Virus record (IMG/VR): IMGVR_UViG_3300046804_003398 | Reading direction: 5' to 3' (one strand) | Origin: a virus | Taxonomy: Duplodnaviria > Caudoviricetes | DNA: 64,000 nt | Shown: in pieces, positions 3,126 to 63,979 of the stretch | How the letters are laid out: the number at the start of each line of letters is the position of its first letter | How positions within the stretch are numbered: position 1 is the first letter of the stretch | Translations under genes and position numbers: made by a program | Notes under the pieces: model-generated | Databases searched by the model: none | What the model was told of the DNA's origin: nothing | Seen by the model: only the letters and a program-made list of their open reading frames with translations

Positions 3126-3149
3126 ACGTTAATAAATAGTTGTTATAAA

Positions 3150-3177
3150 TTGACAGTTCAAGGTTATAGTGTATCAT
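3150..3177 (+). promoter_or_regulatory. Sigma70-like promoter for the nuclease/glycosyltransferase operon
   Basis: TTGACA (3150-3155), 16-nt spacer, TATCAT (3172-3177), just upstream of the ATG at 3184. Confidence 0.6.
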
Positions 3178-3183
3178 GTCATT

Positions 3184-10196: not shown

Positions 10197-10220
10197 AGTA
10201 TAAAAATCTATATATACCAT

Positions 10221-11423: not shown

Positions 11424-12217
11424 ATAAAGTATCAATAGGAATTATTGGTTATGGATATGTAGGAAAAGCGTTTCATAACTTTTTCAAAGGTCATTATGAT
11501 GTAAAGATATATGATCCAGCACTTGCAAATTCATCTACGAAGGATGATATCAATAAGTGTGATCTTGCTGTAATTTGTGTTCCAACTCCAGAAAACGAAG
11601 ACGGTAGTTGTAACACCACTATTGTGGAACAAACGGTTCAGTGGGTAAATACTCCATTGATTCTTTTGAAGTCTACCGTAGAAATTGGAACCACAGATCG
11701 TCTCATAAAGACCTATAATAAAGATATTGTGTTTAGTCCAGAGTTTGCAGGTGAATCAAAGTATTGGACACCCGATGGATTTACTACCGATGTTAAACAA
11801 ACTCCGTTCTTTATTTTTGGTGGTAAGAAGGAATTGTGTTATAAATTGATTGAAATTTATACGCCAATTACAGGTCCAAGCAAAACCTATAGAGTAACTG
11901 ATCCTATCAATGCCGAACTCGCAAAGTATATCACCAATACGCAGTTGGCAATGAAGGTAGCATATTGTAATGAGATCTATGACCTTTGTGAGAAGTTGGG
12001 CACCAACTATTATGAAGTTCGTGATCTGTGGTTATTGGACCCTAGAACTACCAAATCACATACAGCCGTGTTTACTGGTGAACGTGGTTTTGGTGGTAAG
12101 TGCTTTCCAAAAGATACAAAGGCTTTGGTTAAGTTGGGTGACAAGGTTGGTGTTGACCTAGCAATACTAAAGAGTGTATTAGATAGTAATGAAAAACAAC
12201 TAAACAAAAACGTATGA
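11420..12217 (+). CDS. UDP-glucose/GDP-mannose dehydrogenase family protein
   Basis: IGIIGYGYVG Rossmann motif, ICVPTP, LKSTV, FSPEF, AELAKYITN...K, GFGGKCFPKDT with catalytic Cys. Confidence 0.9.
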   Translation: MNKVSIGIIGYGYVGKAFHNFFKGHYDVKIYDPALANSSTKDDINKCDLAVICVPTPENEDGSCNTTIVEQTVQWVNTPLILLKSTVEIGTTDRLIKTYNKDIVFSPEFAGESKYWTPDGFTTDVKQTPFFIFGGKKELCYKLIEIYTPITGPSKTYRVTDPINAELAKYITNTQLAMKVAYCNEIYDLCEKLGTNYYEVRDLWLLDPRTTKSHTAVFTGERGFGGKCFPKDTKALVKLGDKVGVDLAILKSVLDSNEKQLNKNV

Positions 12218-12591
12218 ATCTAGCAGACCTCGACATTCCTCTAATTTTCTGGATATCATTTATACTAATCGTGTGGTTTGAAAGTGATATCATGACCACC
12301 ATTGCTAACTTAACAAACACTCGTAGTTTGATTAGAATTGATGAGTTCTTAAAGTATAAATTAGAAGTTGATGTGATGTCTAACTATCCTACGTTTTTGT
12401 ATAGTAAATACCCAAGTTACTTTACAAAGCTAATATCATGTCCAATTTGTTTATGTTTCTGGTCAACATTGGTAACAGTGAGCTTATTGGTATATGCAGT
12501 TGGTCATCATGAAATATACACGCTGTTGTTGTTTCCAATCAACTATGTGTCCAGTTTGTTTATCTATTTAATTATACGTAAGCTACTATGA
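12214..12591 (+). CDS. Small membrane protein, DUF1360-like
   Basis: Three hydrophobic segments and a CPICLCFW motif. Confidence 0.5.
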   Translation: MNLADLDIPLIFWISFILIVWFESDIMTTIANLTNTRSLIRIDEFLKYKLEVDVMSNYPTFLYSKYPSYFTKLISCPICLCFWSTLVTVSLLVYAVGHHEIYTLLLFPINYVSSLFIYLIIRKLL

Positions 12592-15974: not shown

Positions 15975-17156
15975 TCATCTTCCTACCTCACCAAAGTAAA
16001 GTTTTTTTGAGTCTTCATAAGACATTCCGATCATTTTGTTATAATACAGAACGTCTCCTTTCAATCTATTCTCACTTTTGAGAGTCTTATATCTTGCAAT
16101 TGCCTTTTGTCTCCACCAATCAATAATGTATTTTTCATTGTAAATTGGATTCAACTCTAGCTTGCTTTCTTCAATTTCTCCTCTTAGGAAATCCCTACTA
16201 TTACGATAGGGACAAGCATAATAGGTTCCACGTTCATAACCATGGACATATTCAGCTGCTTTAATTTCACATTGAGAGAAAATCATGCTCAACACACGAT
16301 TCTTGGCACCAGTTACAGGTCCACTAACACCTTCTTTTTGGGTCATTGCCTGTTTGTATTTGTCAGCCTTGTTCTCTTTAATCCAGTCATGCCATACCTT
16401 GTAAATAGCATCATCTGGCTTAATAGTCATTTTACCACTACTGGTTCCACACTTGTGCCACCACTTGAGACTATTATACATACTGTAACTGCCATATAGA
16501 CTGGTTGTGGTAATACCAGCTAGAGTCTGACCATACAACTGCTTCCAAAGATTTCTTACGGTCTCACCAGTTACTAATCCCGCAATCAACTTTCCACCCA
16601 AGAAGTTGTATCCAAATGGTTGTGTAGACATAATACAACTACCAATTGCACTGTTGTTCAACTTCTTACCTTTTAACTTTGCATCTGGAGTCCAACCAAT
16701 ATAGTTATCACGATCAGTAATTGTAATAACATCACTAGACATACTGATTACACCAAGATATCTAGGATTGTCTTTGTTACCATCACTAATCAACAATTTG
16801 ATGAATCTGCCTGGGGTTTGATCATATGCCATTGTATGAACAAACGTTCTAAGCATTACCCATTCAGTATCCAGTGCAGTATTATCTACATGAACTACCG
16901 TTGGATTGATGCTTTCAATTTCTTTAATAGTGGCTGCTTCATCATTTAGATCTGTTGGTGTCCAAATCTTGTTTCTGGCAATTGCTGCTCGTTCAGAATA
17001 ATGATTCAATTCTTGCAGTTCGACCCACTTCTTGTAGAAGGTTTGTTCTTCTACAGACATCGACTTGAGATAATTGAGATTGTCAATTAGTTTCTTCTTG
17101 TTTGTCTCATAGTCGAATTGTTCGATTCCACTAAAATATTCTTGTAATACGTCCAT
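15975..17156 (-). CDS. DUF4338/DruA-like protein
   Basis: PGRFIKLLI...YLGVISMSSD...RDNYIGW...KLNN...QPFGYNFLGGKLIA...TTSLYG pattern recalled for DUF4338-family proteins. Confidence 0.6.
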   Translation of the reverse strand: MDVLQEYFSGIEQFDYETNKKKLIDNLNYLKSMSVEEQTFYKKWVELQELNHYSERAAIARNKIWTPTDLNDEAATIKEIESINPTVVHVDNTALDTEWVMLRTFVHTMAYDQTPGRFIKLLISDGNKDNPRYLGVISMSSDVITITDRDNYIGWTPDAKLKGKKLNNSAIGSCIMSTQPFGYNFLGGKLIAGLVTGETVRNLWKQLYGQTLAGITTTSLYGSYSMYNSLKWWHKCGTSSGKMTIKPDDAIYKVWHDWIKENKADKYKQAMTQKEGVSGPVTGAKNRVLSMIFSQCEIKAAEYVHGYERGTYYACPYRNSRDFLRGEIEESKLELNPIYNEKYIIDWWRQKAIARYKTLKSENRLKGDVLYYNKMIGMSYEDSKKLYFGEVGR

Positions 17157-17175
17157 ATTTATAAACTAGTATATC

Positions 17176-21875: not shown

Positions 21876-22517
21876 TTACTTTTTACGAGCCTTACCGCCC
21901 TTGGTGTATTTGACTACCAACTTTTGTAGATTCTTTGGTAGCTTTGGAGGTTCATAAGATGGATTCTTAGACTTATGATCTACCTGCTTTTCAGTCTTTC
22001 CAACAGGACGCATAGGTTCAGTTGGATCATCTTTTGGTTCATTCATGGCCTTCGCCTTGATAGACTTTACTACCTTGTTGTCTTTTTCTGGATCAACCAA
22101 GTTTTGTTCTTCTGATGCCTTGTCTGCTTTCTTACCACCTTCTTTATCCTTGCTGTTTTCTACATTCTTTTCATAAGCATTATCAACATAGTTTAGTTCT
22201 TTTGAATTCAACCACTCTTTGACATACTTCTTGACATCCTCAAATGGAATATACAAAATCTTTTGACGTTCTACACCGTCTTTAAAGTATTGTAAATCAA
22301 AGATATCATGAACTATAGGACGAATGTTAATGTGATGAGGCTCACATTCGCATACGTTGTAGTTTCCAGCATCGTCAAGAGTAATAGGCTTCTTGATTTC
22401 TTTAGATAAAGATTCCATCATTTCAGCCCAGGTCTTATTGACCTCAGTCGTCTTTTCCTCAATGACCTCTCTTACTATCTTTTTTACAGCATTTTTCAGT
22501 TGATCTCTATAGTTCAT
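21876..22517 (-). CDS. Hypothetical charged protein, probably late/virion
   Basis: 213-aa ORF starting LKNAVKKIVREVIEE, with the TATTTAT motif upstream. Confidence 0.7.
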   Translation of the reverse strand: MNYRDQLKNAVKKIVREVIEEKTTEVNKTWAEMMESLSKEIKKPITLDDAGNYNVCECEPHHINIRPIVHDIFDLQYFKDGVERQKILYIPFEDVKKYVKEWLNSKELNYVDNAYEKNVENSKDKEGGKKADKASEEQNLVDPEKDNKVVKSIKAKAMNEPKDDPTEPMRPVGKTEKQVDHKSKNPSYEPPKLPKNLQKLVVKYTKGGKARKK

Positions 22518-44706: not shown

Positions 44707-45498
44707 TTATTTTGGCTTGATCTTCTTTTGAGCGTCTTGGGCAGCTTTTGTTAAAATACCGGCTCTCACATTAATTTTAGCAATTGCGTCCTTAAACTTG
44801 GATTCTGGTCCAACCAAAGCATCCATAAACCCATTGTCTTCAGTCATTATTTTTCTGATCAATGCCTTGATTTTTCTTCTTTTGATTTCGTCCATAGATT
44901 TCTTCTTGGTTAATATGTTGTAAATACTCTTGACTACTCCAGTTTTTACGCCTGGATAATTTGTCTGAAAATTCTGAAAGTCTCCGTTTGCCAAATCTTG
45001 TCTTAATGTGCTAGCACTGATACTTTGTCCGTTTTTTTCATCGGTTCTACCTTGATAATTTGTTGGAGCGTCATCGGTCATTTCGATCACTGACACATTT
45101 TTTGGTGCTGTTGAACCGTCTTTTGTTGGTTTGGTTTTATAACGATCAACTGCTGCTTTAAATATCTTGCTACGTTTAGCATCTTCTGGACTCTTGGAAC
45201 TGGCTGCCAATGCGATGGTTTCATTACTATCTTTTGGTAGATTGAAAACATATCCAAATGCTGCGTTCATAGGGCTGTCATCGTTGACCGGCACAACCTC
45301 CACCTTGGGGTTTGTAGGCAATAGGTTCCATATTGCTACACTCTGTTGACGGTTAACTCCATCACGTTCACTTGGTCCTACCATCACAATTACTTTACCA
45401 ACATCACTTCGACTTGCAAATTTGTTGGCTAATCCAAGATGTCCAGCATGAGGTGGTTTGAATCCACCGGGTAGTAGCACAGTTACTTTATTGTCCAT
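44707..45498 (-). CDS. Cytidylyltransferase/NMNAT-like HxGH nucleotidyltransferase
   Basis: VLLPGGFKPPHAGH and ISASTLRQ motifs. Confidence 0.8.
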   Translation of the reverse strand: MDNKVTVLLPGGFKPPHAGHLGLANKFASRSDVGKVIVMVGPSERDGVNRQQSVAIWNLLPTNPKVEVVPVNDDSPMNAAFGYVFNLPKDSNETIALAASSKSPEDAKRSKIFKAAVDRYKTKPTKDGSTAPKNVSVIEMTDDAPTNYQGRTDEKNGQSISASTLRQDLANGDFQNFQTNYPGVKTGVVKSIYNILTKKKSMDEIKRRKIKALIRKIMTEDNGFMDALVGPESKFKDAIAKINVRAGILTKAAQDAQKKIKPK

Positions 45499-46065: not shown

Positions 46066-46126
46066 AGTGTTATTCCTTTATGTCCTAGATATAAATATGA
46101 TTAAGATTCAATTCTTGTGATTTTTT

Positions 46127-47287
46127 TTATAATTTGTTGAGATCTTTATCGACAAGATTTGTGATGTTTATTCTCAACTTACTTATGAATCCACTGGCTC
46201 TCAAAAGTTTGAATACAAGGTTTTCGGTGCTGTATTCTCCTCCCGAACTCAAACCAGCTTCACGCATTTTATAGATACGTTGAACCAAGTCTTTCAATGT
46301 ATCTAAATCTTGTTGTTCGACAGCTGTGTTTATTTTAGTCACCAAGTCTTTGTATTTGGTCTTTATAGCGTCTTTGTCGATCTTAACGTCTTCATATGAT
46401 GGTTTCTTTACCCACTTGTTATGAAGGATACTATAAACAGCTTGGCTACGGTTTACATCGTTAATGTCTTGTATGTAAACTTCTACTGGATGATTGTCAA
46501 CACTGATGTCATGTTGTTCATTCCATTTGTTTTTGTAACCGTCAACTAGTTTCTTGACCAGTTCTTTGTTTTCATCAACCTTTGAAAAATCGATCAAAAC
46601 GTGTAGATCAATATCACTGGTTGGTGTCCAATTATAACCAGCTGTGCTTCCTAAAAAGTATATGTCTTCAATTGGTGCGGTCAACTCAGTATCTTTGTAA
46701 AATGTAGTTGCTATCTTTAACAACTGACTAAGAATTTCTGGTTTTAAAGTTTCACCGTCCCAAATTTCTGGATTCAAAATACTGTTGTATATTCTGTATG
46801 ACTCTTTGACACCCAACGTTTCTTTGAGTTTATTGATAGTGTCTGTTGCATTTTTGTGAAGTATACCAATGCCACCAGCTTGAATAAACTCATTTACGTT
46901 GTCTTCACGGTCGTCAATCAATATTGAGTCTGGTGTAGCAAATTTAGCTTTGTCTTCTCTTTCTGGAACCAAGTTTTGTTTGAGTGTAATGTTGTGATTC
47001 GACAACCACTTTTCTTTGCCTTGTATACACTCTGGATCAGTTCCATGACTCAATATTTCAGTTGGAAACTCTTTGATGAAATTGTAAAGAATTTTACCGT
47101 CGTTCATCCAAGGCATCGTTGCATAAAAATTGGGACTGTTTTTATGAACCAACTCGTATCTTTTTTCTTTACCGTGTTCAGCCTCGTATGTTTCTACTGG
47201 AACTCCAAATAATCTTTCAAACTGTTTTTCCCAGTCTGTCAGAACTCCATCCATATCAACGTAAATTTTGTATTTGCTTTGAACCAT
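46127..47287 (-). CDS. Fusion: HAD 5'-nucleotidase-like domain + Pol-beta-superfamily nucleotidyltransferase
   Basis: N-terminal YVDMDGVL...ILIDDR; C-terminal FLGSTAGYNW...SDIDLH...VEVYIQD. Confidence 0.8.
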   Translation of the reverse strand: MVQSKYKIYVDMDGVLTDWEKQFERLFGVPVETYEAEHGKEKRYELVHKNSPNFYATMPWMNDGKILYNFIKEFPTEILSHGTDPECIQGKEKWLSNHNITLKQNLVPEREDKAKFATPDSILIDDREDNVNEFIQAGGIGILHKNATDTINKLKETLGVKESYRIYNSILNPEIWDGETLKPEILSQLLKIATTFYKDTELTAPIEDIYFLGSTAGYNWTPTSDIDLHVLIDFSKVDENKELVKKLVDGYKNKWNEQHDISVDNHPVEVYIQDINDVNRSQAVYSILHNKWVKKPSYEDVKIDKDAIKTKYKDLVTKINTAVEQQDLDTLKDLVQRIYKMREAGLSSGGEYSTENLVFKLLRASGFISKLRINITNLVDKDLNKL

Positions 47288-52870: not shown

Positions 52871-52915
52871 TAAATATAAATATCGGAATCTTCGATATTA
52901 GTGCTAAAATCTACT

Positions 52916-53455
52916 CTATACCAAATTATTACCTTCAAACTTTCGTGGACCACTTAAATCCACAATTTTATACTTAATTGGCATATCTTTTATAGTAGCA
53001 TAAACAGCCTTTATGTTCTTGGGACTGTCATCAATAAAAAAGATATCGTTGTAACCCTCATTTTCAATTTTATCCTTGATCCAGTTAGCCTTAGCCATAG
53101 GATCACTAGTTCCAACGGTCACAATAGGTATATTGACTTTAAAATACCTCTGGAGAACGTTTTGTATGTGAGGCTGACTCTCTGGACCTCTTGCAGTCAA
53201 AACGACGGCAAGACGACCATCTGACCCCGCACTGACTATCTTATAAAACCTCTTGGCTACATTACGAATAACTACTGGATCTATAACTGAACTAAACTCT
53301 GAAAAATCAAATTTGTCACCGGGTTGTTGAGTATACACCGCATATTGTGCGGGAGTTAATTTGACAACTGAACCATCTGATTTGGTCAATATTACCTTAC
53401 CACCAGTTTCAAAAAGTGTGTCATCAAAATCAAATACTCTTAGTTTCTTGGTCAT
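52916..53455 (-). CDS. HAD-superfamily phosphatase
   Basis: RVFDFDDTLF (DxD), VLTAR, K, FFIDDSPKN. Confidence 0.85.
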   Translation of the reverse strand: MTKKLRVFDFDDTLFETGGKVILTKSDGSVVKLTPAQYAVYTQQPGDKFDFSEFSSVIDPVVIRNVAKRFYKIVSAGSDGRLAVVLTARGPESQPHIQNVLQRYFKVNIPIVTVGTSDPMAKANWIKDKIENEGYNDIFFIDDSPKNIKAVYATIKDMPIKYKIVDLSGPRKFEGNNLV

Positions 53456-53583: not shown

Positions 53584-53845
53584 ACATTTTTGTAATTTTG
53601 ACCACAAGTTTTCCAGAGCCTTTTATGACTCTGTGATACGTTTCTTTAGGTATAAATATTGAACCCTCCATCAAACACGGAAGATTATTATCCAATTGAA
53701 CCTCCCAACCACCATTATTCTCTACAACCTCAACCAAACGGTTTTCTTTGTCCAAATGCCACTCTAATTCATGACTATCTATATTGGATTCAAACTCACG
53801 AATATACTGATTATTCCCCAGACTTGTCTCTGTATAAGGCATCAT
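53576..53845 (-). CDS. Small cupin-like protein
   Basis: LEWHLDKENRLVEV...IFIPKETYHRVIKG cupin-type His motifs. Confidence 0.6.
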   Translation of the reverse strand: MMPYTETSLGNNQYIREFESNIDSHELEWHLDKENRLVEVVENNGGWEVQLDNNLPCLMEGSIFIPKETYHRVIKGSGKLVVKITKMYE

Positions 53846-54639
53846 ACATTTCTAGGACGCATTGGTTCTATTGTCCTCAGATGTAAATCATCGTCATCAG
53901 ATTGTTCTACACTGTCTACTTTCTTTACATTTTTATAGTAATTTTCAATCCACTTTCTACCGATTGGATTTTTTATAGGACTCTTCAAAAAGTCAATCAC
54001 ACTTCTCAAAACACCTCTATCAATTGGTTCATTGTTCTTTGTTCGATCAACTATTCTAAAGTTGTTACGAAATATGTTTTGAAAATGACCCAAATTATTT
54101 TGACAGCTAAACCACATCTGTGATAACAAATCCTCTGGTATCTTACGAGATCTCTTCGCATTACGTTCCATTGCAACTTGTAAACTAGTGTTGACAAATA
54201 TCATGTAACAATCATATCCATGTTGTTCCATAACACGTTTCTTGATTTGTATTGATTCTATACTATCACCAGTTCCATCTATGATAAGTCCTAATTTAGC
54301 CTTTCTATACATGTCTAGTTTTTTTCTTGTGATTCGTTTTGCTTTTTCTCTAGTAGATTGGGGACCAACAGTCAATCGTTCAAACTCTTCTGGACTCAAT
54401 TTACTAAAGTCTGTAGATATGTTCATATTATGAAGCATCTTCTCAAACTCGTTATCACTATTGATTACCTTCAAACCATATCGATTTACAGATGAATTGG
54501 AAGGCAAATCAAATAACTCAGTAGCTACAGTGCTTTTTCCACTACCAGGCCCACCAGCCATAAATATACACTTGAGAGTTGATGGATCATCGACACCCTC
54601 GGTCAATCTATGCTTTTTTAGTAGTTCAAGTAAATTCAT
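53842..54639 (-). CDS. P-loop kinase (zeta-toxin/AAA_33/PNK kinase-like)
   Basis: FMAGGPGSGKS, INSD, LIIDGTG, FVNTSLQVAMERNAKRSR lid motif. Confidence 0.85.
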   Translation of the reverse strand: MNLLELLKKHRLTEGVDDPSTLKCIFMAGGPGSGKSTVATELFDLPSNSSVNRYGLKVINSDNEFEKMLHNMNISTDFSKLSPEEFERLTVGPQSTREKAKRITRKKLDMYRKAKLGLIIDGTGDSIESIQIKKRVMEQHGYDCYMIFVNTSLQVAMERNAKRSRKIPEDLLSQMWFSCQNNLGHFQNIFRNNFRIVDRTKNNEPIDRGVLRSVIDFLKSPIKNPIGRKWIENYYKNVKKVDSVEQSDDDDLHLRTIEPMRPRNV

Positions 54640-55631
54640 AATGATTTGATATAAATATCAGTGTCTCTCTTCAATTCATCCTCTGGCACATTATCCAAAT
54701 TATCACCATACTTCTGTAACCAATATTGTTTGATTTTACCTAACATTGGTCCTGGCTTTACATTGAAGTTTTGCATGATCCAATCACCACCATATTTAGA
54801 TTTAACTGGGGTAAATGATTCAATCTCTTTTTGTTTATCCAACAACATCTGATACTTGTCTGGAAACAACCGCTTCAAGAAATAGTCTGGGTCACTAATC
54901 TGTTTGTGTTTATTCAAACCAATCAATGACTTTCTAATATAATCAGCACTAGGTCTACCAGCTCTAACTCTCTTTCTATCACTATGATTCATAGTTTGAC
55001 CCTTATAGTCATCGCTATCAAACATAGGACTACTACTGATAAACTTAACTACATCATCATTGTTTTGTATACTATCGTAATCACCCAATACATCACCATA
55101 ACCAAGTATCTTCAAACCATCTTTTAGATTCTTAGTAATTAGTATATCGTGATGTCTACCACTCTTATCTACATAAATCTTTTGAAAGCCTGTAGTAGCA
55201 TACTTGTAACCATTTTGTCTAGCCATTACCCCAAGTATTCCACTCAAGTCTCCCAGAGCCAAATACATTCTTTGTGCTTCAAAGTCTTCATCATTATCTG
55301 AATGTATAAAATCTATATGAACATTCTTGCCTGTATTGCTTTTATACAACACACTATAAATGTTACCGTTACGACTGTAATCCAATACTTTCTCACCCAA
55401 TTGTGATTTTAGAGTATTAGCTACATCACCACCACCAGATACAACCACATCAATATCACCGTGGTCTGCTTTAGATGGTAATGCTTTGCTTAATTCAAAC
55501 TTATTGAATTTGTTATTCAACAAGTTTTTAAGCTCGTCAAAGATACTATTCATTTCAGCGGTAGACACTCTACTGGCTCTAGTGCCAAAGAGTTTACCAC
55601 CTTCAACTAATAGATCCATCAATTTGATCAT
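54636..55631 (-). CDS. Pol-beta-superfamily nucleotidyltransferase
   Basis: HGDIDVVV, third Asp in VHIDFI, and a C-terminal GGDWIMQNFNVKPGPMLGKI resembling the tail of CCA-adding/poly(A) polymerases. Confidence 0.65.
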   Translation of the reverse strand: MIKLMDLLVEGGKLFGTRASRVSTAEMNSIFDELKNLLNNKFNKFELSKALPSKADHGDIDVVVSGGGDVANTLKSQLGEKVLDYSRNGNIYSVLYKSNTGKNVHIDFIHSDNDEDFEAQRMYLALGDLSGILGVMARQNGYKYATTGFQKIYVDKSGRHHDILITKNLKDGLKILGYGDVLGDYDSIQNNDDVVKFISSSPMFDSDDYKGQTMNHSDRKRVRAGRPSADYIRKSLIGLNKHKQISDPDYFLKRLFPDKYQMLLDKQKEIESFTPVKSKYGGDWIMQNFNVKPGPMLGKIKQYWLQKYGDNLDNVPEDELKRDTDIYIKSL

Positions 55632-56131
55632 AGAGGATTGTATGTCTTTTCAAACTCAACTTTAGCAATACGATAATAACCAGTATTAGCTGGATCTTTT
55701 ACCAAATAATCACCAGGCTTGATAATCATATCTTCTCCCCACGGAGCTTTAAATGTTACTGGTTCGCCTGTATACAAAGCAACTTGTCTTGGAGATTGTT
55801 CTGGATAAATATCTCCACCAACATTACCAGTATATAACTTAGGTAACTTAACTGCCTTGATTACATAATTCTCACCAGTAGCACCACTAAAAATAATATC
55901 GCCGACCTCAGCAGTGTTTTGTGTTTCTTTACCATCTGTAGTTGTAGTAACCACTGGTTGTTGAATTGTTGACTTGGTATATGTCATTGGAGGCATAGAA
56001 CCTGGTTTACCATCTTCAACGTATTTATAAACCAACTTTTGTTTGGTTACTGGCTTAAATGCTAATGTGGATGCAATTTGATTGATATCTGCATTAGCAA
56101 CTTCACTGAGAATGTCTTTTAGTTTAATCAT
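55628..56131 (-). CDS. PGDYG-like domain protein
   Basis: TTDGKETQNTAEVGDII..GATGE.Y and APWGEDMIIKPGDYLV..YRIAKVEFEKTY. Confidence 0.6.
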   Translation of the reverse strand: MIKLKDILSEVANADINQIASTLAFKPVTKQKLVYKYVEDGKPGSMPPMTYTKSTIQQPVVTTTTDGKETQNTAEVGDIIFSGATGENYVIKAVKLPKLYTGNVGGDIYPEQSPRQVALYTGEPVTFKAPWGEDMIIKPGDYLVKDPANTGYYRIAKVEFEKTYNPL

Positions 56132-56661
56132 AGGTTTATAAAGTATTTGCCTTTTGGCCCACTATACTTGAATCTGGTAATTGGTAAAGATATATTTAGA
56201 TTGTCTTTGATGTGTGGAAAGCTACCCTTCTTCACATAAGCTAATGTCATATGGGGTTTGTAGTCTGGGTAACCGTCAGTATTTGGATAACCATCACATC
56301 TACGTCTCAATTCAGTTAAGATAGGACTCTTTTCAACTTCAAACTTAACCACATCAAATTTATCATTTTCAAACAAATTGAGTGCTTTCAATACCACATT
56401 AAATGGCTTTACACCTTGAAGGATTCTAGCAACATCGGGTCTACCAATATCTGGTTCAAATCCATACTTGAGAGTCACATGAGGTTCTTCATCGTAACCA
56501 TATGTAGGATCATTAGGATCAGTATATAGTATTTGTGGTGGTATTGCGGTTCTACCAAGTCTAATTACATGTGGTCCATAAGTAGGACTTACATGTGCCA
56601 TTAAACAACCCTTTTCAACGTGTCTATTTTCTACGAGTAACATATTTTCTAATAATTTCAC
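56128..56661 (-). CDS. 2H phosphoesterase (Acb1/T4 gp57B-like)
   Basis: Two HxT motifs: EPHVTLKYG and KPHMTLAY. Confidence 0.85.
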   Translation of the reverse strand: MKLLENMLLVENRHVEKGCLMAHVSPTYGPHVIRLGRTAIPPQILYTDPNDPTYGYDEEPHVTLKYGFEPDIGRPDVARILQGVKPFNVVLKALNLFENDKFDVVKFEVEKSPILTELRRRCDGYPNTDGYPDYKPHMTLAYVKKGSFPHIKDNLNISLPITRFKYSGPKGKYFINL

Positions 56662-57901
56662 GAATCAAATGTTCTTTCTTTACCAATTGGTCCAAAGGCA
56701 CACCTCTATACTTTTGTCTTAGTTGCGCAATTGGCATACCATATTGTTTTTCAGCTTGAGCAATCAGATTGTATCTATCTTGTTTCTCTTTTTCTAAAGA
56801 TGCCAATTTACGAGCAACTACAGTAGCAACAGTATTCTTAATGTTATCATTATAATACTTCTCACCCGATACCAAAAGATCATTCAATATTTTAATTTCT
56901 ACTTCTAACCCATTTACTTCTTTTTCTAAATTATCCTTTTCAGCAGGCGTGAGTTTCGCTCCTGTTGTATGAAGTTTTCCTCTTTTTTCAATAAACTCTT
57001 GTGTCTTATCATCAATTACTTTTTCCAAACTAGGTTGTTGTTGTATTTTCGTAAGACCCCAAGAAGGATAATCAAATTCACTACCAACCGGTGTATTGGA
57101 CAAATCACTATCAGTTACCTTTATTGATACATTATTACCTTTAATAGCGGTAACATCAGCTCTTATACCTAGTCCTAGGATTTTTATTTTGTCACCTACT
57201 TTGAATTCAACATCTGCTTTATCGGTAACAGATGGTTTAGGTGCGGCCGGAGGAGTTTCTTTCTTAGGTTCTTCTTTATCATACATTTGATCGTATGACA
57301 TCATCTTGCTACCAGTTTCATACAAACACTCAGTTGGATTATATCCATTAAACTCTATGACTTTTTCATATTGATCTTTGTATGGAATTACCTTATCTTT
57401 ATTATAATCCCAGAATGTTACAATGATAGCTTTACCACTCGGGATTGTGCTTTCAATTTGAAGATCCAAATTTTCTGGCGGTTTACCATCTGTATTGTCT
57501 ACCTCAAAGATTCTACCTTTCATGATAGGATCTGAATATGCGCCCATTCTACCCAATCCCTTTAGAATATTTTCCAAATCCAAATGACCACCACCATTAT
57601 TACTAGCCTTTAATCGTTTGATACCTTTTTGGGCCCAATAATCCAATTGTTCTCTCTTATTAGAATCATACTTTATTTCCGGAGCGTCTTCTAATTCTTT
57701 GATTTCTTTTAATACATCACTATCATCTGAGTAAAATTCTTTCTTGTTGTCGCTATATCCAAATATTGACTTTTTACCACTCTTGTCGTCTTTATAAACA
57801 AAAAAAGCACATCTGTTGGCCGGAGAAGTGTAGTTATACAACTTTCTCTTGTAACTAACAGTGTCAGGATTTTCCACCAAAATATCAATTAATTTAACCA
57901 T
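56624..57901 (-). CDS. Hypothetical protein (425 aa)
   Basis: Starts with the shared MVKLIDILVE leader; C-terminal coiled coil. Confidence 0.8.
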   Translation of the reverse strand: MVKLIDILVENPDTVSYKRKLYNYTSPANRCAFFVYKDDKSGKKSIFGYSDNKKEFYSDDSDVLKEIKELEDAPEIKYDSNKREQLDYWAQKGIKRLKASNNGGGHLDLENILKGLGRMGAYSDPIMKGRIFEVDNTDGKPPENLDLQIESTIPSGKAIIVTFWDYNKDKVIPYKDQYEKVIEFNGYNPTECLYETGSKMMSYDQMYDKEEPKKETPPAAPKPSVTDKADVEFKVGDKIKILGLGIRADVTAIKGNNVSIKVTDSDLSNTPVGSEFDYPSWGLTKIQQQPSLEKVIDDKTQEFIEKRGKLHTTGAKLTPAEKDNLEKEVNGLEVEIKILNDLLVSGEKYYNDNIKNTVATVVARKLASLEKEKQDRYNLIAQAEKQYGMPIAQLRQKYRGVPLDQLVKKEHLIREIIRKYVTRRK

Positions 57902-57906
57902 AAATT

Positions 57907-58509
57907 TTACCAGTATTTTCCTTTACCCTTGTTTCCTAAACTACGAATACGATGACTACGACAACTCCAGTAACCAGCTGTAGTTCTATCTTTCTTTTGA
58001 CTACATCTGTGACGTGCAGCAAAACTCTTACGACGAGCCTTGTTACCAGCTCTACTTCTCATATTTGGATCACCAAAAGTTACCTTCTTCACATTGCCGT
58101 TTTTTGATTTGACATACACGGCGTATTTCTTAGGACCGCCTGGAGTTCTGAATGGTCTATTGAGATGAACAGTGCGACCTCTGTGTTTCAACTCCATGAT
58201 CAAATCTTCTTCGACTTCAATAGGAGCATCCAAATAAACTTCTCGACCTTCAAATACTTCCTTCTTACCAAGATCACTTTCCACCAATTCAGCATCCGCA
58301 TCACACAACTCTATTAGGTTGTCATAATACAATTTACGAACTTCATCAATCAACTCAAAGTAAGACTCACTGTAGGTTCGAAAAATGTTCTCACTGAGAG
58401 ATATATTCTTTGACAAATGATATCGTAAATTTGAACTTGTTTCTACTTCTTCCAACAAGTTCATTGAGCAAAGCGAGTCGCTCTCTATAAGGTCGTTAAG
58501 CTTGATCAT
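57907..58509 (-). CDS. Conserved-type phage protein with basic C-terminal domain
   Basis: MIKLNDLIE leader; KKVTFGDP...ARRKSFAARHRC...AGYWSC C-terminal domain. Confidence 0.75.
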   Translation of the reverse strand: MIKLNDLIESDSLCSMNLLEEVETSSNLRYHLSKNISLSENIFRTYSESYFELIDEVRKLYYDNLIELCDADAELVESDLGKKEVFEGREVYLDAPIEVEEDLIMELKHRGRTVHLNRPFRTPGGPKKYAVYVKSKNGNVKKVTFGDPNMRSRAGNKARRKSFAARHRCSQKKDRTTAGYWSCRSHRIRSLGNKGKGKYW

Positions 58510-58521
58510 ATGATATAAATA

Positions 58522-59448
58522 TTATCCGTATTTGTTTATCGTTTTTAATTCGTTAATCAATATCTTTTCCTCAGCATCCAAGTTCTTATCCAATTCAACA
58601 AACACATCATCCAACGACATCTTGGTATTTGAACGTTTTTGAATAGTCTTTAAACTTTCAAGAGTATCAACCACAGTATCCAATGTGTTCTTATGTCTAT
58701 TGAATGTCGGTAATTCTATGTGGTTACTAAATTGAACTGCTTTTGGAGCAACACCTTTGAGAAGATTGATGATCGAAGCAACAATATGTTCAAAAATACC
58801 AAATATAGCTCCAGCAATTGGGTTTGTTGCTGCCAAAAATCTCAATACCATAAAACATATCAAGAATATCAATATGCCAGTTACACCGATAGTAACAAAT
58901 CGTTTTAGACCATACATCACACCACCAAGTCCCATCCAACTATTTACTTCATCAACGGTCACTTGCAAGGCATCAGCCTTCTTTGCAACTTGTGTTGCTT
59001 GGGTTTCAAGACCCTTTATTTGTTCTTCATAAACATCCTCAATTTCCTTCTGTTTAACTTGAAGTGCTAAAATTTCTTCGTCTCTTTGTTTTAGAAGTTT
59101 ACTACCCTTGTCTTTTTCCTTTTGAACTTCACTATTCAAAAGATCTGTAAGTTCCTTAATTTTGTTCAACTCGTCGATATTAGGGTTGCCAGTAATGTTC
59201 AATACCCTATTGTTAAAGTCTATAGCAGTCTTGACTTGAACTGGAGGATTGGTAACTGCCTTCAACGAGTAATCAGTTCCAGATGCTAACGTAGCTACTT
59301 GCTGTAATTTCTCACCTTCGTTTTTTGCCAATTCAACTCGGGTCTCCGCAAGAACATCTTTTGTCTTTTGAACTTTTTCTACATTGGACGTTTTGCATCC
59401 TCCGACCAATAAAAAAGAAGCCAAAAATAGTGTAAATAGTTTTCTCAT
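58522..59448 (-). CDS. Lipoprotein with coiled coil and C-terminal membrane segment (spanin-like architecture)
   Basis: MRKLFTLFLASFLLVGGC lipobox, coiled coil, then FVTIGVTGILIFLICFMVLRFL. Confidence 0.55.
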   Translation of the reverse strand: MRKLFTLFLASFLLVGGCKTSNVEKVQKTKDVLAETRVELAKNEGEKLQQVATLASGTDYSLKAVTNPPVQVKTAIDFNNRVLNITGNPNIDELNKIKELTDLLNSEVQKEKDKGSKLLKQRDEEILALQVKQKEIEDVYEEQIKGLETQATQVAKKADALQVTVDEVNSWMGLGGVMYGLKRFVTIGVTGILIFLICFMVLRFLAATNPIAGAIFGIFEHIVASIINLLKGVAPKAVQFSNHIELPTFNRHKNTLDTVVDTLESLKTIQKRSNTKMSLDDVFVELDKNLDAEEKILINELKTINKYG

Positions 59449-59514
59449 ACCTATAAATATTGAATCGGTATATAAAAACTTGTGTATTTCACCACACTCA
59501 TTTATGATATTAAC

Positions 59515-60288
59515 ATGTCAAAATATTGTGACACATCACTGATATATCTAAAATCGATCAACAAATCGGTCGCACGTAACTTGATCGAAAAGAACCACTA
59601 TACACACAAGTGGACCAGTTGTTCTGTAGCATATGGTGTGTATACCAAAGATTATGTTGAAAGCACATTCTTTGGAGGATTCGATAGTAGATTGATTGGT
59701 GTTCTTGTATATGGTAATGCTGTAGGACGTAATTCAAGCACTAGTATAACTCCGTTACTAACCAACGATAACGTGTTTGAATTGACCAGATTGTGGATTG
59801 AAGACGGTCACGGCAGTAACATAGAAAGCTACTGTATAGCAGAAAGTTTCAGATTGTTGAACATGGAGTTTCCTCAAATCAAGTGTATCTTGAGTTATGC
59901 TGACAGTGAAGTGGGTCACGCCGGAACTATTTATCAAGCAACTGGTTTCTTATATCAAGGGGACAATTATGTTGATATAGCACTGATGCCAAATTATAGT
60001 GTTAGTTTGATTGGACCACCCAACTATGATTGGATACACAGTAGAAACGTCTATGGTAGATGGAAAACACACAATGTGGACAAACTCAAGGAACGTATAG
60101 GAAAAACGTTCTGGCGCAAACGTGAGAGTGGCAAACACCGTTATATTAAGTTCATCAGTAACAAGATTGAAAATAAACGGTTGTCAAAGTCACTGATACA
60201 TAAACTGTTACCCTATCCAAAATCAACATCGTTCACAGAACAAATACAAGAAGTTGTGGTGAATAATGACCACAAATTTTTCCAATAA
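59515..60288 (+). CDS. Mom-like GNAT-fold DNA base-modification protein
   Basis: LIEKNHY, LIGVLVYG, ELTRLW, ES, ILSYAD..VGHAGTIYQATGFLYQG, KHRY. Confidence 0.8.
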   Translation: MSKYCDTSLIYLKSINKSVARNLIEKNHYTHKWTSCSVAYGVYTKDYVESTFFGGFDSRLIGVLVYGNAVGRNSSTSITPLLTNDNVFELTRLWIEDGHGSNIESYCIAESFRLLNMEFPQIKCILSYADSEVGHAGTIYQATGFLYQGDNYVDIALMPNYSVSLIGPPNYDWIHSRNVYGRWKTHNVDKLKERIGKTFWRKRESGKHRYIKFISNKIENKRLSKSLIHKLLPYPKSTSFTEQIQEVVVNNDHKFFQ

Positions 60289-60345: not shown

Positions 60346-62076
60346 TTATACGGTGTCGAGATCGGCGATCAAGACCTTACCGTAGAACTCAGGACGCACT
60401 ACCTTCTTAGCGTAGCGAGTCATCACACCACGGCGTGGAGTGAAGTTCACTGGATCATAGACCAATGGAGTTTGGATGAGTGGGATGTATGGAGCATACA
60501 CAGCACCAGTCTCCAAGAAGTTGCTACCACGGAAACCAACGAGGATAGCATTATCGGTCATGTATGGGTTCTTGTAAACTTGGAAGCGACTTGCGAAGCT
60601 ACCAACACGGCTTACACCCATTGCGAACTTAGCTTGGTCACCGTCAGTGTTCACAACATATCCTGGGATTGACTCCAAGATGGTTGCTACGTCTGGCGAA
60701 CATACCAAGAAGTTTGCGCCACCACGTAGAGTCAATTGGTGAATCTTGTTAGAGACCTTTTGGATCTTGTTACCAAGAGTTTGGAACCAAGTGCTCTTTA
60801 CGTAAGCGGTGCGGTTTGGTGAAGCGTTAACAACACGGGTGAACGAAGCCACATCGGTGGTGTTGTTTACAGTCTTGGTGAACTCAGTTCCGATTTGGGC
60901 AGACCAAGCTTCGGTAGTTACACCAGTGACAGACTCGTTCAACATGTCGAGGATTTCGAGGTCGATTTCCATCGAAACATACTCACTCAAGAGAGCAGTA
61001 AGTTCTGCTTCTGCATCAATAGAGTGATATGCGTTCAAGTCTTGAGCCAATTCTGGGGTCCAGACAGCCTTCAACTTACGGGTCTTAGCAACGATTGGTT
61101 CGCTCTTAAGTTCCAAGTTGACTTCTGGGATCTTGATATCAGTGCCGATAGATTGGGTATAGACGTTGTTAGCAACACCAGAACCTTCACCAGCGGTCTT
61201 ACCGTCTTCAAAGTCACCACGGAGGTTGTCCGAAGGTTGAACTGTGTAGTTCAAACGTGCAGTAGTAGATGGAGCAGCAGCACCAGCAGATTGACTTACG
61301 AACAAGTTAATTTGATAGTATGGGTTTGCCAAGCTACCAGTGTTAACTGCGGTTGCGTAAGTGTTCAATACAGTGTAAGCTACACCAGAACTCTTTTGAA
61401 CACCGAAAGAACGCACTGCGTTCAAGTCAACGTTCCAGAGGTTACCGGAACCTGGCTTTGCTTCGGTGTTGTCATCAAGGTTAAAGGTAATCTTGTAGAC
61501 ACCTGGAACATTGTTAGAACCGTTAACGGAAGCACTGAAAGCAGAATCGAATTGTAGATCGTTCCAGCTTGCGGTAGCTACGAGAACAGTTGCGTTGGAG
61601 CTAGAGACGGTGCGCTCAGAATAAGCATAGCGTCCTTGGCCATAGAGACCATTTACAGCAGCATCAGTAGAACCGAGCTTCTTTTGGTTACCACCGAACA
61701 AGCTTTCGCCTGCAGTGTGTCCCAATTGAGTGCCGGAACCATACTTGAAGTCGAGATAGAAGATAAGACCGCTTGGGAGGTTCATTGGTTGAACCGAAAC
61801 GAACTCCTTAGCAGCGATCTCAGCAAATACACGACGGACCAATGGAAGAGCAACGCCTGCCCATTGTTCACTGTTTGCACTAGTTCCAGTTGTTGAAGCT
61901 TCGTCCAACAATTGCTTTGCTTGGTTTTCCAAGAGGATTGACATGTGTGCCTTTTCAACACCGGTGGTGTTTTCGAGAAGACCTGTCTTTTCCCACTTGT
62001 TTTGAAGACCACGGGTTTCAGCCATTAGCTTAGCCTGTGGATTCATATTATTTGTTAGTAGACTCTTTACGTCCAT
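60346..62076 (-). CDS. gp23: Major capsid protein (T4 gp23-like)
   Basis: PLVRRVF, VSVQPMNLPSGLIFYL, AKTRKLKAVWTPELAQDLNAYH, APYIPL, FTPRRGVMTRYA. Confidence 0.97.
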   Translation of the reverse strand: MDVKSLLTNNMNPQAKLMAETRGLQNKWEKTGLLENTTGVEKAHMSILLENQAKQLLDEASTTGTSANSEQWAGVALPLVRRVFAEIAAKEFVSVQPMNLPSGLIFYLDFKYGSGTQLGHTAGESLFGGNQKKLGSTDAAVNGLYGQGRYAYSERTVSSSNATVLVATASWNDLQFDSAFSASVNGSNNVPGVYKITFNLDDNTEAKPGSGNLWNVDLNAVRSFGVQKSSGVAYTVLNTYATAVNTGSLANPYYQINLFVSQSAGAAAPSTTARLNYTVQPSDNLRGDFEDGKTAGEGSGVANNVYTQSIGTDIKIPEVNLELKSEPIVAKTRKLKAVWTPELAQDLNAYHSIDAEAELTALLSEYVSMEIDLEILDMLNESVTGVTTEAWSAQIGTEFTKTVNNTTDVASFTRVVNASPNRTAYVKSTWFQTLGNKIQKVSNKIHQLTLRGGANFLVCSPDVATILESIPGYVVNTDGDQAKFAMGVSRVGSFASRFQVYKNPYMTDNAILVGFRGSNFLETGAVYAPYIPLIQTPLVYDPVNFTPRRGVMTRYAKKVVRPEFYGKVLIADLDTV

Positions 62077-62122: not shown

Positions 62123-63223
62123 TTACTTCTTGATTCCTGCGAGCTTTTGGAATCTTGAAGCCATCACATCAGCTTGAGGTTCTACAATCGTAGAGTCAGG
62201 CTTTGTGCTGGATACTGGTTTGCTTGCCAAACCTTCGGTGATAGTTGAGACAGTCGCATTTGACTTTTTCTTGGCGACTGATCCACCGGCATTAAATGAT
62301 TCGGCCAAAACTGTGTATGCCAATTTGATTTCACGCAATGTCTTGGTGAGATCAAATGTGTTGATGACCTTCAACTTTTGGTCTTCGGTCAAATTCTTAC
62401 CCTTGAAGATCTTGTTGGTATAAAGCAACTTAGCATTCAAGAGATTGGTTTCTTCAAGAACACCCTTCAAATACTTCACAGTATCTTGATGTTCCTTCAA
62501 TTGATTCTTCAATGCTTCGTTTTCTTCATTGATTGCAACAAGTGCTTCTGCCATTTCTTCAGCAGTCACATCCTCTTCATAAGTGTCTTCTTCCATTGGA
62601 GAAGGAACTTGTCCAGCAACTGGTGCTACTGGAGCTTGAGGAACTACTGGAGCAGCTGGTGCTGCTACTGCGGCAGCTGCTGGATCAGCAACTGGGGCAA
62701 CTGGAGCAGCTGGTGCTTGACCATCTTCTTCCAATTCAGCGAGAAGTTCATCAAGATCAACAACTTCTTCTTCAGAAGCTTGTTCTTCTTCAGCTACAAC
62801 TTCATGCTTCTCTTCCTTTTCCTCTTCGCCGTCTTCCTTCTTACCTTCTTGTTCCAACTCAGCAAGAATCTCATCCAACTCTTCGCTGGTGATTTCTTCG
62901 CCTTCTTCAAGAGTTGCGTCGAACTCTTGCTTTCCAGCTGGAGTGGTGTTTTTCTTTGCTGCAGTAGAAGGTTGGGTTGGGTGTTGCTTAGAAGCAATAT
63001 TGCTGTCATCCTTACCGATGCCAGAAGATGCAAGCTTCTCTTCGATCTTGCCTTCCTCTTCCTTACCTTCTTGTTCTTGTTCTGATTCTTCCTTGAGCTT
63101 CTCTGCGAACATTTCTTTCATGCTCTTTGCGAAGTTTTCCTCAAGAAAGGTTTTTGCATTAGCAATTGCAGTTTCACGAACTGCCTTTGCGTCTGCGATG
63201 CTTTCCTTTAATAGATCGCTCAT
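62123..63223 (-). CDS. Prohead scaffold/core protein (gp22-like)
   Basis: MSDLLKESIADAKAVRETAIANAK, a very acidic middle, LLNAKLLYTNK, RFQKLAGI; directly upstream of the capsid gene. Confidence 0.85.
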   Translation of the reverse strand: MSDLLKESIADAKAVRETAIANAKTFLEENFAKSMKEMFAEKLKEESEQEQEGKEEEGKIEEKLASSGIGKDDSNIASKQHPTQPSTAAKKNTTPAGKQEFDATLEEGEEITSEELDEILAELEQEGKKEDGEEEKEEKHEVVAEEEQASEEEVVDLDELLAELEEDGQAPAAPVAPVADPAAAAVAAPAAPVVPQAPVAPVAGQVPSPMEEDTYEEDVTAEEMAEALVAINEENEALKNQLKEHQDTVKYLKGVLEETNLLNAKLLYTNKIFKGKNLTEDQKLKVINTFDLTKTLREIKLAYTVLAESFNAGGSVAKKKSNATVSTITEGLASKPVSSTKPDSTIVEPQADVMASRFQKLAGIKK

Positions 63224-63373
63224 ATTAATTTTACCTTTCCTATGTTGTTTTGTGAAGTTATTGGAGAACTCCAAAGAAGATTTAAATTCCGTGGCATCAA
63301 AGACATTGACGCATTTGATAATAAATATAATTTAAATTTGGAAAATGGCAATTTTTTTGATATTTATAGATGT

Positions 63374-63979
63374 ATGCCAGCAAAATCTGAAAAACAAGCA
63401 CGATATTTTAGACTCGTTAGAGCAGTTCAAAAAGGTGATGTTCCTGCAAAGGACGTATCTAAGGACTTGAGAAAGACTGCGAAAAGTATGTCACCAAAAG
63501 CTGTAAAAGATTTCACCAAGTTGAAAGAGTTACTAAAGAATTTGAGCGAATCGGAGTTCAGTTCTGCAAAAATGCAAGAAGTTCCAGATAAAACATTGGA
63601 TGATGTATTGAGAGAAAACTCGGGTGTGAAGTTTGATAAAGAAGAACTTCTAACATTCCAAAACAAACAAAATGGTTTTGGTGGTTTTGGTAAAGCAAAC
63701 TTTGTTCATAAAAAGAGTAGCAACGAAATCAAAGCAAATATCACTAGTAATGAATCAAACAAAGATTATGTGTTTAAGAAACTAGTGAATAACCAAAACC
63801 CAGGCTTATACAACTACGGTTGCTTTATTGGTATCACACCATCTAAACAAAGTGATAACCCAGAAGATAACAAAGAAAAAGTAGTCTACATGTTGAGTAG
63901 TATCTTCGATAATGATGGTGAAGAAAAAAACAAAATATTAGCAGACTTCATTGATAGAATTAATTCATATGGACTATAA
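63374..63979 (+). CDS. Hypothetical late protein (MPAKS-type N-terminus)
   Basis: MPAKSEKQARYFRLV...SMSPKAVKDF; TATTTATA at 63361-63368 supports the 63374 start over the track's 63242. Confidence 0.75.
   Translation: MPAKSEKQARYFRLVRAVQKGDVPAKDVSKDLRKTAKSMSPKAVKDFTKLKELLKNLSESEFSSAKMQEVPDKTLDDVLRENSGVKFDKEELLTFQNKQNGFGGFGKANFVHKKSSNEIKANITSNESNKDYVFKKLVNNQNPGLYNYGCFIGITPSKQSDNPEDNKEKVVYMLSSIFDNDGEEKNKILADFIDRINSYGL

Follow-up and report, generated by a model that had tools for sequence, protein, structure and literature searches.

The capsid-targeting sequence (CTS) of bacteriophage T4 is the textbook route by which proteins are shipped together with phage DNA, and it has been documented mainly in T-even coliphages, where it is carried by small restriction inhibitors. 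A candidate counterpart is described here in a stretch of 64,000 nucleotides from an uncultured virus (IMG/VR record IMGVR_UViG_3300046804_003398; Duplodnaviria, Caudoviricetes), the whole of which is called the window below. Six consecutive open reading frames (ORFs) at positions 53842-58509, all on the minus strand, encode unrelated proteins that begin with a similar leader of 9-14 residues, and their coordinates and N-termini agree with those given by an earlier sequence-only reading of this DNA. These leaders are interpreted here, with moderate confidence, as T4-type capsid-targeting propeptides that are cut by the prohead protease and that are attached to a variable, mostly enzymatic head cargo. 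By analogy with T4, the six proteins are probably carried in the virion of this phage.

The CTS of the T4 internal proteins IPI, IPII and IPIII (Mullaney and Black 1996, reviewed in PMC9026906 and PMC3012670) is likewise a 10-residue N-terminal peptide on unrelated proteins; it ends in [IL]-x-E, the cleavage motif of the gp21 protease, and the cargo set varies between related phages. In IPIII the first 10 residues are enough for packaging, with residues 4 and 7 involved in targeting and residues 8 and 10 in processing, and reviews have already suggested that T4-like phages could be loaded generally by means of the CTS (PMC9026906). Changing E10 of the T4 CTS to D or A reportedly blocks the cut. 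The protease also removes the first 10 residues of gp24 and the first 65 of gp23 (PMC9958956), while Alt, a packaged enzyme, is cut at ITE-6 (PMC5694885) and injected (PMC5694885, PMC5512222). The N-termini of retrieved T4 sequences read MKTYQEFIAE in IPII and IPIII, MAKINELLRE|S in gp24, MELITE|L in Alt, MLKEQLIAE in gp22 and MEGLIE in gp67 (a vertical bar marks a cleavage site). Three leaders of the window, namely MIKLMDLLVE (nucleotidyltransferase, NTase), MIKLKDILSE (PGDYG-like protein) and MVKLIDILVE (gene 5), stand in the register of IPII/IPIII and gp24: positions 4, 7 and 8 are hydrophobic, position 6 is acidic and position 10 is glutamate. These three and the gene 6 leader have L4 and L/I7, as against Y4/F7 in IPIII and I4/L7 in gp24. 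The gene 6 leader is one residue shorter, and those of the 2H phosphoesterase and the kinase are longer and out of the T4 4/7 register, with the same ending.

The nearest sequence match to MIKLNDLIE|S (gene 6) and MIKLKDILSE is the cleaved start of gp24, but gp24 belongs to the shell, and a paralogue of it was not seen here; Alt, for its part, is an ADP-ribosyltransferase (ART), a fold absent from the cluster. The locus also differs from the T4 CTS system in several respects. Its leaders have the form MIKLxDLLxE rather than MKTYQEFIAE and are known from sequence alone, its capsid protein has 32% alignment identity to T4 gp23 (about 100 N-terminal residues aligned), its cargo consists mostly of enzymes of 17-47 kDa whereas that of T4 consists of small restriction inhibitors, and its leader genes lie within the head and neck gene block. 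Judged by analogy, the locus is the counterpart of the variable internal-protein and Alt cargo of T4.

A strict pattern, x-[IV]-K-L-x-[DE]-[LI]-[LI]-x(0,1)-E, was scanned in the six-frame translation of the whole 64 kb. It occurs four times, each time on the ATG of a cluster gene (the four neighbours encoding the NTase, the PGDYG-like protein, gene 5 and gene 6), and not once in 100 codon-block shuffles; the leaders of the kinase and the 2H protein are looser variants that the strict pattern does not match. The ending [IL]-x-E within residues 4-15 is found in 6/6 cluster genes and in 4/67 other called ORFs. The proposal of the sequence-only reading that six consecutive genes have leader-like N-termini is thereby confirmed, and all six genes lie in the structural half of the window (Fisher p = 0.0035, with the boundary chosen post hoc). 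Two internal look-alike strings that it had listed are indeed present: the plus-strand ORF 63242-63979 encodes KLKELLKNLSE, and the product of 46127-47287 has KLKETLGVKE at residue 153; nothing found here supports them as signals.

At the coding level, the three 10-residue leaders are identical at 18-22 of 30 bases as compared with 7 of 10 residues. Leucine is encoded by TTG, CTA, TTA, CTC or CTT and aspartate by GAT or GAC, and the DNA upstream of the leaders is unrelated from gene to gene. Therefore, the constraint acts on the peptide and not on a DNA or RNA element, and on the same grounds a DNA-level repeat was rejected as the cause of the common leader. In related contigs at least seven unrelated protein families bear the leader, and the gene set of the locus differs from one relative to another. 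A strict degenerate DNA pattern run against three related records recovered the known leaders only, being too strict for variants. Across the six proteins of the window, the junctions read LVE|G, LSE|V, LVE|N, LVE|N, LIE|S and LTE|G, with I or L at P3 and glutamate at P1.

The conservation of this junction can be followed most extensively in the kinase. This P-loop kinase (265 amino acids; 53842..54639, minus strand) has a 14-residue leader, MNLLELLKKHRLTE (54598-54639), with a predicted cut after E14 and before GVDDP. It matches Pfam AAA_33 (PF13671; 51.5 bits, cut-off 27) and Zeta_toxin (PF06414; 41.5 bits, cut-off 22.3), contains the Walker A motif GGPGSGKS, and also matches PHROG 12810 and the polynucleotide kinase family phrog_505 (E 5.6e-10); the Pfam kinase match begins at residue 25. 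A phmmer search of PDB sequences gave no match for either the kinase or the 2H protein. More than 7,600 environmental sequences belong to the kinase family at E <= 1e-5, and the N-termini of the best 120 matches, 96 of them distinct, were examined. In 94 of these 96, the P-loop follows hydrophobic-x-E at a distance of exactly 14 residues and G[VI]xDP comes directly after the junction, while the number of residues preceding the junction ranges from 4 to 86; several of these homologues carry the canonical MIRLKDLLNE, MVKLIDLLNE or MLKLKDILLE.

A comparable picture is given by the NTase (331 amino acids; 54636..55631, minus strand; leader MIKLMDLLVE at 55602-55631, predicted cut before GGKLFG), which resembles Pol-beta and other family-X enzymes. 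Among homologues of 56-100% identity the leader has 10, 14 or 17 residues, the starting MIKL is nearly always kept, and hydrophobic-x-E directly before the invariant GGKLFG is kept in every intact N-terminus inspected. Residues G58, D59 and D61 of the metal-binding motif G-[SD]-x-D are invariant in 22 homologues. An AlphaFold2 (AF2) model has an overall predicted local distance difference test score (pLDDT) of 87.5, with residues 1-11 below 50 and a confident fold starting right after them, and its top Foldseek matches are DNA polymerases beta, mu and lambda (E about 2e-6, template-modelling score about 0.36). Homology of the NTase to gp181 of the Flavobacterium phage immuto was considered and rejected, BLASTP being not significant (E 0.31-0.81) and the gp181 start MGGNVF offering only a hint.

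The next three genes upstream add further junctions. The PGDYG-like protein (167 amino acids; 55628..56131, minus strand; leader MIKLKDILSE at 56102-56131) matches Pfam PGDYG (PF14083) at 21.2 bits, under the cut-off of 27, and its XacN1 homologue ORF211 (30% identity over the full length) starts with MKLHDIITE|G. The 2H phosphoesterase (177 amino acids, GTG start; 56128..56661, minus strand; leader MKLLENMLLVE at 56629-56661) has two H-x-T motifs, PHVTL and PHMTL, and matches Pfam 2_5_RNA_ligase2 (PF13563; 50.1 bits, cut-off 27) and LigT_PEase (30.1 bits). The family of the anti-CBASS (cyclic-oligonucleotide-based anti-phage signalling system) protein Acb1 (PF23474) is matched at 24.1 bits only, under the cut-off of 27 and over residues 124-152 alone, and the protein is accordingly classed on sequence as a 2H enzyme whose membership of Acb1 is not supported. 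Most of its phage homologues align from residue 18 on only, and the two inspected, in LR756508 and Maribacter phage Molly, have no leader. Gene 5 (56624..57901, minus strand; leader MVKLIDILVE at 57872-57901) encodes a conserved protein of 425 amino acids whose N-terminal alpha/beta domain is followed by a KOW/SH3-like barrel and a helical C-terminus. L8, E10 and the ensuing NPDT are retained in its homologues from 39 viral contigs, the most distant of which have 46% alignment identity, and in its AF2 model residues 1-10 have pLDDT below 50 with confident structure right after. Fold searches with gene 5 (PDB, AFDB clusters) matched the barrel only, leaving the N-terminal domain without a match.

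Gene 6 (200 amino acids; 57907..58509, minus strand; leader MIKLNDLIE at 58483-58509) ends in a basic domain found widely among podophages and myophages (PHROG 7595 over residues 108-184). A second leader-like string, MNLLEEVE, follows right behind the first at residues 16-23. The alignment with the immuto homologue (41% identity) begins at residue 16, with MNLLEEVE opposite the immuto start MIRLQEIV; the first 15 residues are therefore an add-on, as if a new leader had been placed ahead of an older one. Taken together with the leaderless 2H homologues and the low-pLDDT ends, this indicates that the leader is an addition to the proteins that bear it, and in the two modelled proteins, the NTase and the gene 5 product, the prediction places it outside the folded mature protein. 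Enzyme folds are recognised in four of the six proteins, where the catalytic motifs are intact (two H-x-T, Walker A and the NTase G-D-x-D), no such fold is recognisable in the products of gene 5 and gene 6, and the predicted mature forms have isoelectric points of 8.4-9.4 in five of the six. Three of the genes overlap the preceding gene, the 2H gene overlapping the end of gene 5 by 38 nt, and gene 5 begins 6 nt past gene 6.

For such leaders to be processed, a protease of suitable specificity has to be available. In the related contig L018, an ORF just past the scaffold-side genes matches Pfam Peptidase_S77 (1.3e-30), the gp21-type family; L018 and a second relative, L019, have the same gene order as the window at the scaffold end, and L019 has a candidate protease ORF at the same place, judged by its N-terminus alone. 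In L018 the protease gene is followed by a seventh leader gene (MIKLKHLVEN), and the interval from the sheath gene to the terminase gene holds two further ones, whose products start with MIKLSRILFE and MISLSDLLLE. The related IMG/VR contigs are fragments, with CheckV completeness estimates of about 27-31%. The gp23-type major capsid protein of the window (60346..62076, minus strand) has a predicted propeptide of residues 1-59 (61900-62076) ending in L-L-D-E|A, and this LLDE|A (E59|A60) aligns with the T4 gp23 cut site LTE|A (E65|A66); the corresponding residues are IVSE|A in immuto and LISE|A in Mel-JY01. Specificity for hydrophobic-x-E is plausibly retained, because the capsid cleavage site aligns with hydrophobic-x-E|A across the clade. 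When the S77 protease of L018 was modelled in complex with NTase residues 1-45, the score was 0.00 against a mark of 0.32, which is evidence neither for nor against binding. Next to the capsid gene, the gp22-like scaffold protein (62123..63223, minus strand) has the likely start MSDLLKESIADAK, a sequence similar to the leaders as well as to the N-terminus of T4 gp22, MLKEQLIAEAQK.

Virion data are available for a homologue of the kinase in Agrobacterium phage Atu_ph07, which encodes 16 T4 core proteins, a gp21 homologue among them (PMC6102473). Its protein AUZ94865 holds the kinase domain (37% identity, E 6e-42) and corresponds to gp53, as checked by numbering (gp1 is AUZ94813; gp50 has 14.36 kDa and 135 amino acids, gp54 56.49 kDa and 490 amino acids). 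Atu_ph07 gp53 (778 amino acids, 87.07 kDa) was detected in virions by mass spectrometry with 31 unique peptides and 45.5% coverage, and its peak abundance was in gel band 9, a band of about 21 kDa to which proteins of 20.8-24.3 kDa are exclusive (PMC6102473 Table S5). On either side of its kinase domain stand VTE|GVND, with the predicted cut after E252, and LTE|LFD, with the predicted cut after E458; the former aligns with LTE|GVDD of the window, and the fragment predicted from both cuts has 23.0 kDa. These data fit a virion protein that is cut by the prohead protease at these junctions. The architecture of gp53 (L059:1754-4090) is polyprotein-like, with an N-terminal YRG-motif region, the kinase and two similar modules that each start with LFDT after L-x-E; gp54 (L059:258-1730) starts with MRWEQLNE and has a YRG motif, and both proteins are in the published virion proteome.

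Among other T4-core phages, same-style leaders are also present on the kinase homologues of RsoM2USA (MTTFKEYLLE|G), Melnitz (MKTFAELQE|G) and Pelagibacter phage HTVC008M (MIPFILKE|G). In the RsoM2USA proteome, which covers the 10 strongest bands only, the kinase ORF254 is not listed and the nearby ORF257 is. HTVC008M (L055, 5242-9836) has a comparable cluster beside replication genes, with a DUF6267 protein (MYNDLLVE), the kinase (MIPFILKE), a cytidylyltransferase-like protein (MKTLKELL) and a gene 6-like basic domain.

With regard to expression, the promoter-like motif ATATTTATA occurs in 14 copies in the window as compared with 0.93 expected, mostly on the coding strand and at most about 25 nt upstream of a start codon. 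It precedes the tail tube, neck, gene 6 and kinase genes, among others: one copy (58514..58522, minus strand) lies just upstream of gene 6 and another (54650..54658, minus strand) ahead of the kinase gene within the 3′ end of the NTase gene, and further sites include 46090-46098, 52875-52883 and 59452-59460 on the minus strand and 17155-17163 and 63360-63368 on the plus strand. Four of the six leader genes have no copy directly upstream. The motif contains TATTTATA, the reverse complement of the T4 late promoter TATAAATA, and may itself be a late promoter; given its closeness to the ATG, 5′ leaders would be very short or absent. Its distribution suggests that the leader genes are co-expressed with the structural genes.

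Specifically, the following course of events can be envisaged: (i) the cargo genes would be expressed together with the structural genes, as the common ATATTTATA suggests; (ii) the leader, through its hydrophobic residues 4, 7 and 8, would bind the scaffold core and carry the protein into the assembling prohead, by analogy with T4; (iii) a gp21-type (S77) protease would cut after the glutamate of hydrophobic-x-E, a step that junction conservation supports, and the mature protein would begin exactly where the fold or conserved region begins; and (iv) the mature proteins, five of six of them basic, would remain in the head with the DNA and probably exit with it at infection. The proposal of the sequence-only reading that the leader is a T4-like targeting signal cleaved by the protease is favoured by the T4 register, the S77 protease in a relative, the capsid site, the junction, the models and the Atu_ph07 homologue, all comparative tests that were run being in agreement. 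Cleavage, scaffold binding, presence in this virion, ejection and a counter-defence or RNA-repair role are inferred from these comparisons, and the cargo could, as that reading also suggested, act as a ready-made nucleotide-processing kit before transcription.

Several points weigh against this interpretation. The protease gene is seen in relatives only, none being found within the 64-kb window. The kinase and 2H leaders depart from the 10-residue pattern, and the 2H start (a GTG overlapping gene 5) is uncertain. The same late block includes enzymes that have no leader, namely a haloacid dehalogenase-like protein (HAD; 52916-53455), a HAD-NTase (46127-47287) and a cytidylyltransferase-like protein (44707-45498). 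The invariant hydrophobic-x-E before GVDDP in the kinase family could belong to a family-specific fold rather than to a cut site, and low pLDDT at the N-terminus is common to any protein. The band assignment in Atu_ph07 is indirect (the published data have no semi-tryptic peptides), and its virions were purified by polyethylene glycol (PEG) only, with a few likely contaminants (RecA-like protein, single-stranded DNA-binding protein, ribonucleotide reductase) at low coverage (PMC6102473). The immuto and HTVC008M homologues are located outside the head module, and no virion proteome, N-terminal sequencing or expression data for this phage or close relatives were found in the literature on the nearest cultured relatives, Mel-JY01 and RM378.

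Among other explanations, the one that survives best shares targeting and cleavage with the interpretation above and differs in the fate of the cargo: the proteins, or at least those of gene 5 and gene 6, would be head-assembly or core components in the manner of T4 gp67, gp68 and Inh, to be degraded or kept structurally and not to act as effectors in the next host. It agrees with the standing of gene 5 as a core gene of the clade that always adjoins the neck gene and lacks an enzymatic fold, with the N-termini of the T4 core proteins gp67, gp68, gp22 and Inh, which are of the same style, and with the leader gene that lies between the protease and scaffold genes in relatives. However, an assembly role is not obvious for the four proteins of six that have enzyme folds with intact catalytic motifs, and the cargo set differs between close relatives as it does with the T4 internal proteins; this explanation is considered unlikely for the cluster.

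Slightly less probable still is a docking peptide for a target other than the capsid, such as a cytoplasmic multi-enzyme complex, a membrane or compartment, or a tag for regulated degradation or activation. A short amphipathic peptide on several enzymes of possibly one pathway of nucleic-acid ends (kinase, 2H, NTase and the neighbouring HAD) would suit such a device, as would a jumbo-sized genome of about 260 kb. It would leave unexplained the in-register match to the T4 CTS and gp24 propeptides, the glutamate-ended junction in common with the capsid cleavage site, the position of the leader genes among head genes and the kinase homologue in a virion.

That the leaders have no targeting function at all, being a by-product of A/T-rich starts in a host without Shine-Dalgarno use or the N-terminal helix of each fold, is very improbable. 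MIK and MKL starts do use A/T-rich codons, and the junction residues of the kinase family are as conserved as the fold. Nevertheless, 67 other ORFs under the same translational regime are without the motif, on which ground translation-start codon bias was rejected as the cause of the common leader, and positions 6-10 are conserved as well; the leader accepts insertions and deletions while both of its ends stay fixed, both AF2 models put it outside the fold, and some homologues are leaderless. Finally, common 5′ ends copied as DNA-level recombination cassettes with a regulatory element and kept for gene shuffling deserve hardly any credence, despite the varying gene set of the locus, the ATATTTATA that precedes two of the six genes and the mobile regulatory cassettes that T4-type phages reportedly have, given that base identity among leaders is so low, with differing synonymous codons and unrelated upstream DNA, that the other four genes are tightly packed (three overlaps and a 6-nt gap before gene 5) without the motif upstream, and that the peptide is kept in homologues of 43-60% identity.

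The capsid-targeting interpretation can be extended, as a tentative possibility that is rather doubtful at present, to a portable tag (M-I-K-L ... hydrophobic-x-E) which across very distant T4-core and jumbo phages would load exchangeable enzymes acting on nucleic-acid ends and nucleotides, among them the P-loop kinase, the Pol-X-like NTase and the 2H phosphoesterase. Arriving in the cell together with the DNA, these enzymes would pre-empt RNA-cleaving or cyclic-nucleotide abortive-infection defences before phage expression. If true, this would amount to a widespread and overlooked class of virion-delivered counter-defence enzymes.

The source of the window is a distant T4-type myophage, a freshwater phage related to T4 with a genome of about 260 kb. 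Its capsid protein matches Pfam Gp23 (4.7e-75), and the nearest database relatives of that protein are those of Microcystis phage Mel-JY01 and Flavobacterium immuto phages (about 51% identity) and of Rhodothermus phage RM378 (36%). An identical copy of the NTase is present on a contig of 260,318 bp, and the genome is therefore jumbo-sized. Close to the cluster, a protein of 308 amino acids (58522-59448, minus strand) is encoded between the capsid gene and the leader genes, with ATATTTATA upstream; its N-terminus (LVGGC) resembles that of a lipoprotein, a long stretch is coiled-coil-like, and the C-terminal part has hydrophobic helices. A Mom-family gene (59482-60288; Pfam Mom 3.2e-42) lies on the opposite, plus strand between this lipoprotein gene and the capsid gene. 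In the close relative L015 (gene 5 98% identical), a gene for a 726-amino-acid Laminin_G_3 (concanavalin-like) protein without a leader (10325-12505) is inserted between the PGDYG-like and NTase genes; its absence from the window marks the locus as a hot spot of gene gain and loss.

Further N-terminal themes were noticed in the window and in other phages. At the right end of the window, just past the scaffold gene, the product of 63374-63979 (plus strand, preceded by ATATTTATA) begins with a short domain that matches small PHROG families, then continues with KLKELLKNLSE|S and may be cleaved internally; in relatives this gene lies between the protease-side leader gene and the scaffold gene. A second theme, M-T-K-x-D-L-K-x-L-I-x-E-V-Y-E-E, is found on small proteins beside gene 5 in the relatives L020-L048 (e.g. 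L041:7209-7739), and the window gene 21876-22517 (MNYRDQLKNAVKKIVREVIEE), with ATATTTATA upstream, resembles it. In L057 (LR756508.1, an uncultured phage of 484 kb), five proteins of 250-283 amino acids start with M-[KRM]-[LR]-[KF]-K-x-[LY]-...-E (2211-3026, 3058-3906, 5009-5860, 9647-10459 and 10502-11257) and surround the leaderless 2H homologue; in at least two of them an LYRG motif recalls ADP-ribosyltransferases. With these proteins a huge phage may possess a further family of leader-tagged cargo.

If the interpretation of the cluster is confirmed, it would (i) provide a simple rule for recognising virion cargo in uncultured phages of the T4 superfamily, namely an N-terminal leader ending in hydrophobic-x-E at a fold boundary, (ii) make the pre-packaged kinase, NTase and 2H activities candidates for first-minute tools of counter-defence or takeover and (iii) supply new tags for loading foreign proteins into non-coliphage capsids. 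The same logic and register as in T4 are met in a freshwater jumbo phage whose capsid protein is distant from that of T4, with the tag on enzymes, and the junction rule holds in most of the environmental homologues inspected.

Beyond T4, two other described systems invite comparison. In giant phages of the phiKZ-like and SPN3US type, many head-internal proteins are processed after glutamate by a gp21-related protease, and the SPN3US paralogues gp53 and gp54 have identical 15-residue N-termini and a diverged remainder (PMC5694885). Those phages have an A/S-x-E motif, an S80 protease and tagged proteins that are largely paralogues of one another, whereas the cluster described here has an [LI]-x-E motif, an S77 protease in a relative and unrelated folds. 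The polyvalent proteins (Iyer et al. 2017, PMC5512222) likewise combine Pol-beta NTases, 2H phosphoesterases, kinases and ARTs, for which packaging and delivery along with the DNA were proposed. Atu_ph07 gp53 is polyvalent-like in this sense, with an ART-like region (as its YRG motif is read), this kinase and two more modules, hydrophobic-x-E separators and a place in the virion. In the present cluster, however, each domain has a gene and a leader of its own instead of a place in a long polyprotein, and the kinase is of the P-loop (AAA_33/Zeta-like) type whereas that of PMC5512222 is of the Ser/Thr type. Given the overlap in domains with the polyvalent effectors (PMC5512222), an effector role for the cargo is plausible, not proven, and the leader cluster resembles an unbundled form of such packaged effectors. 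The concept is thus a known one; what is new is the clade, the cargo and the generality of the junction rule.

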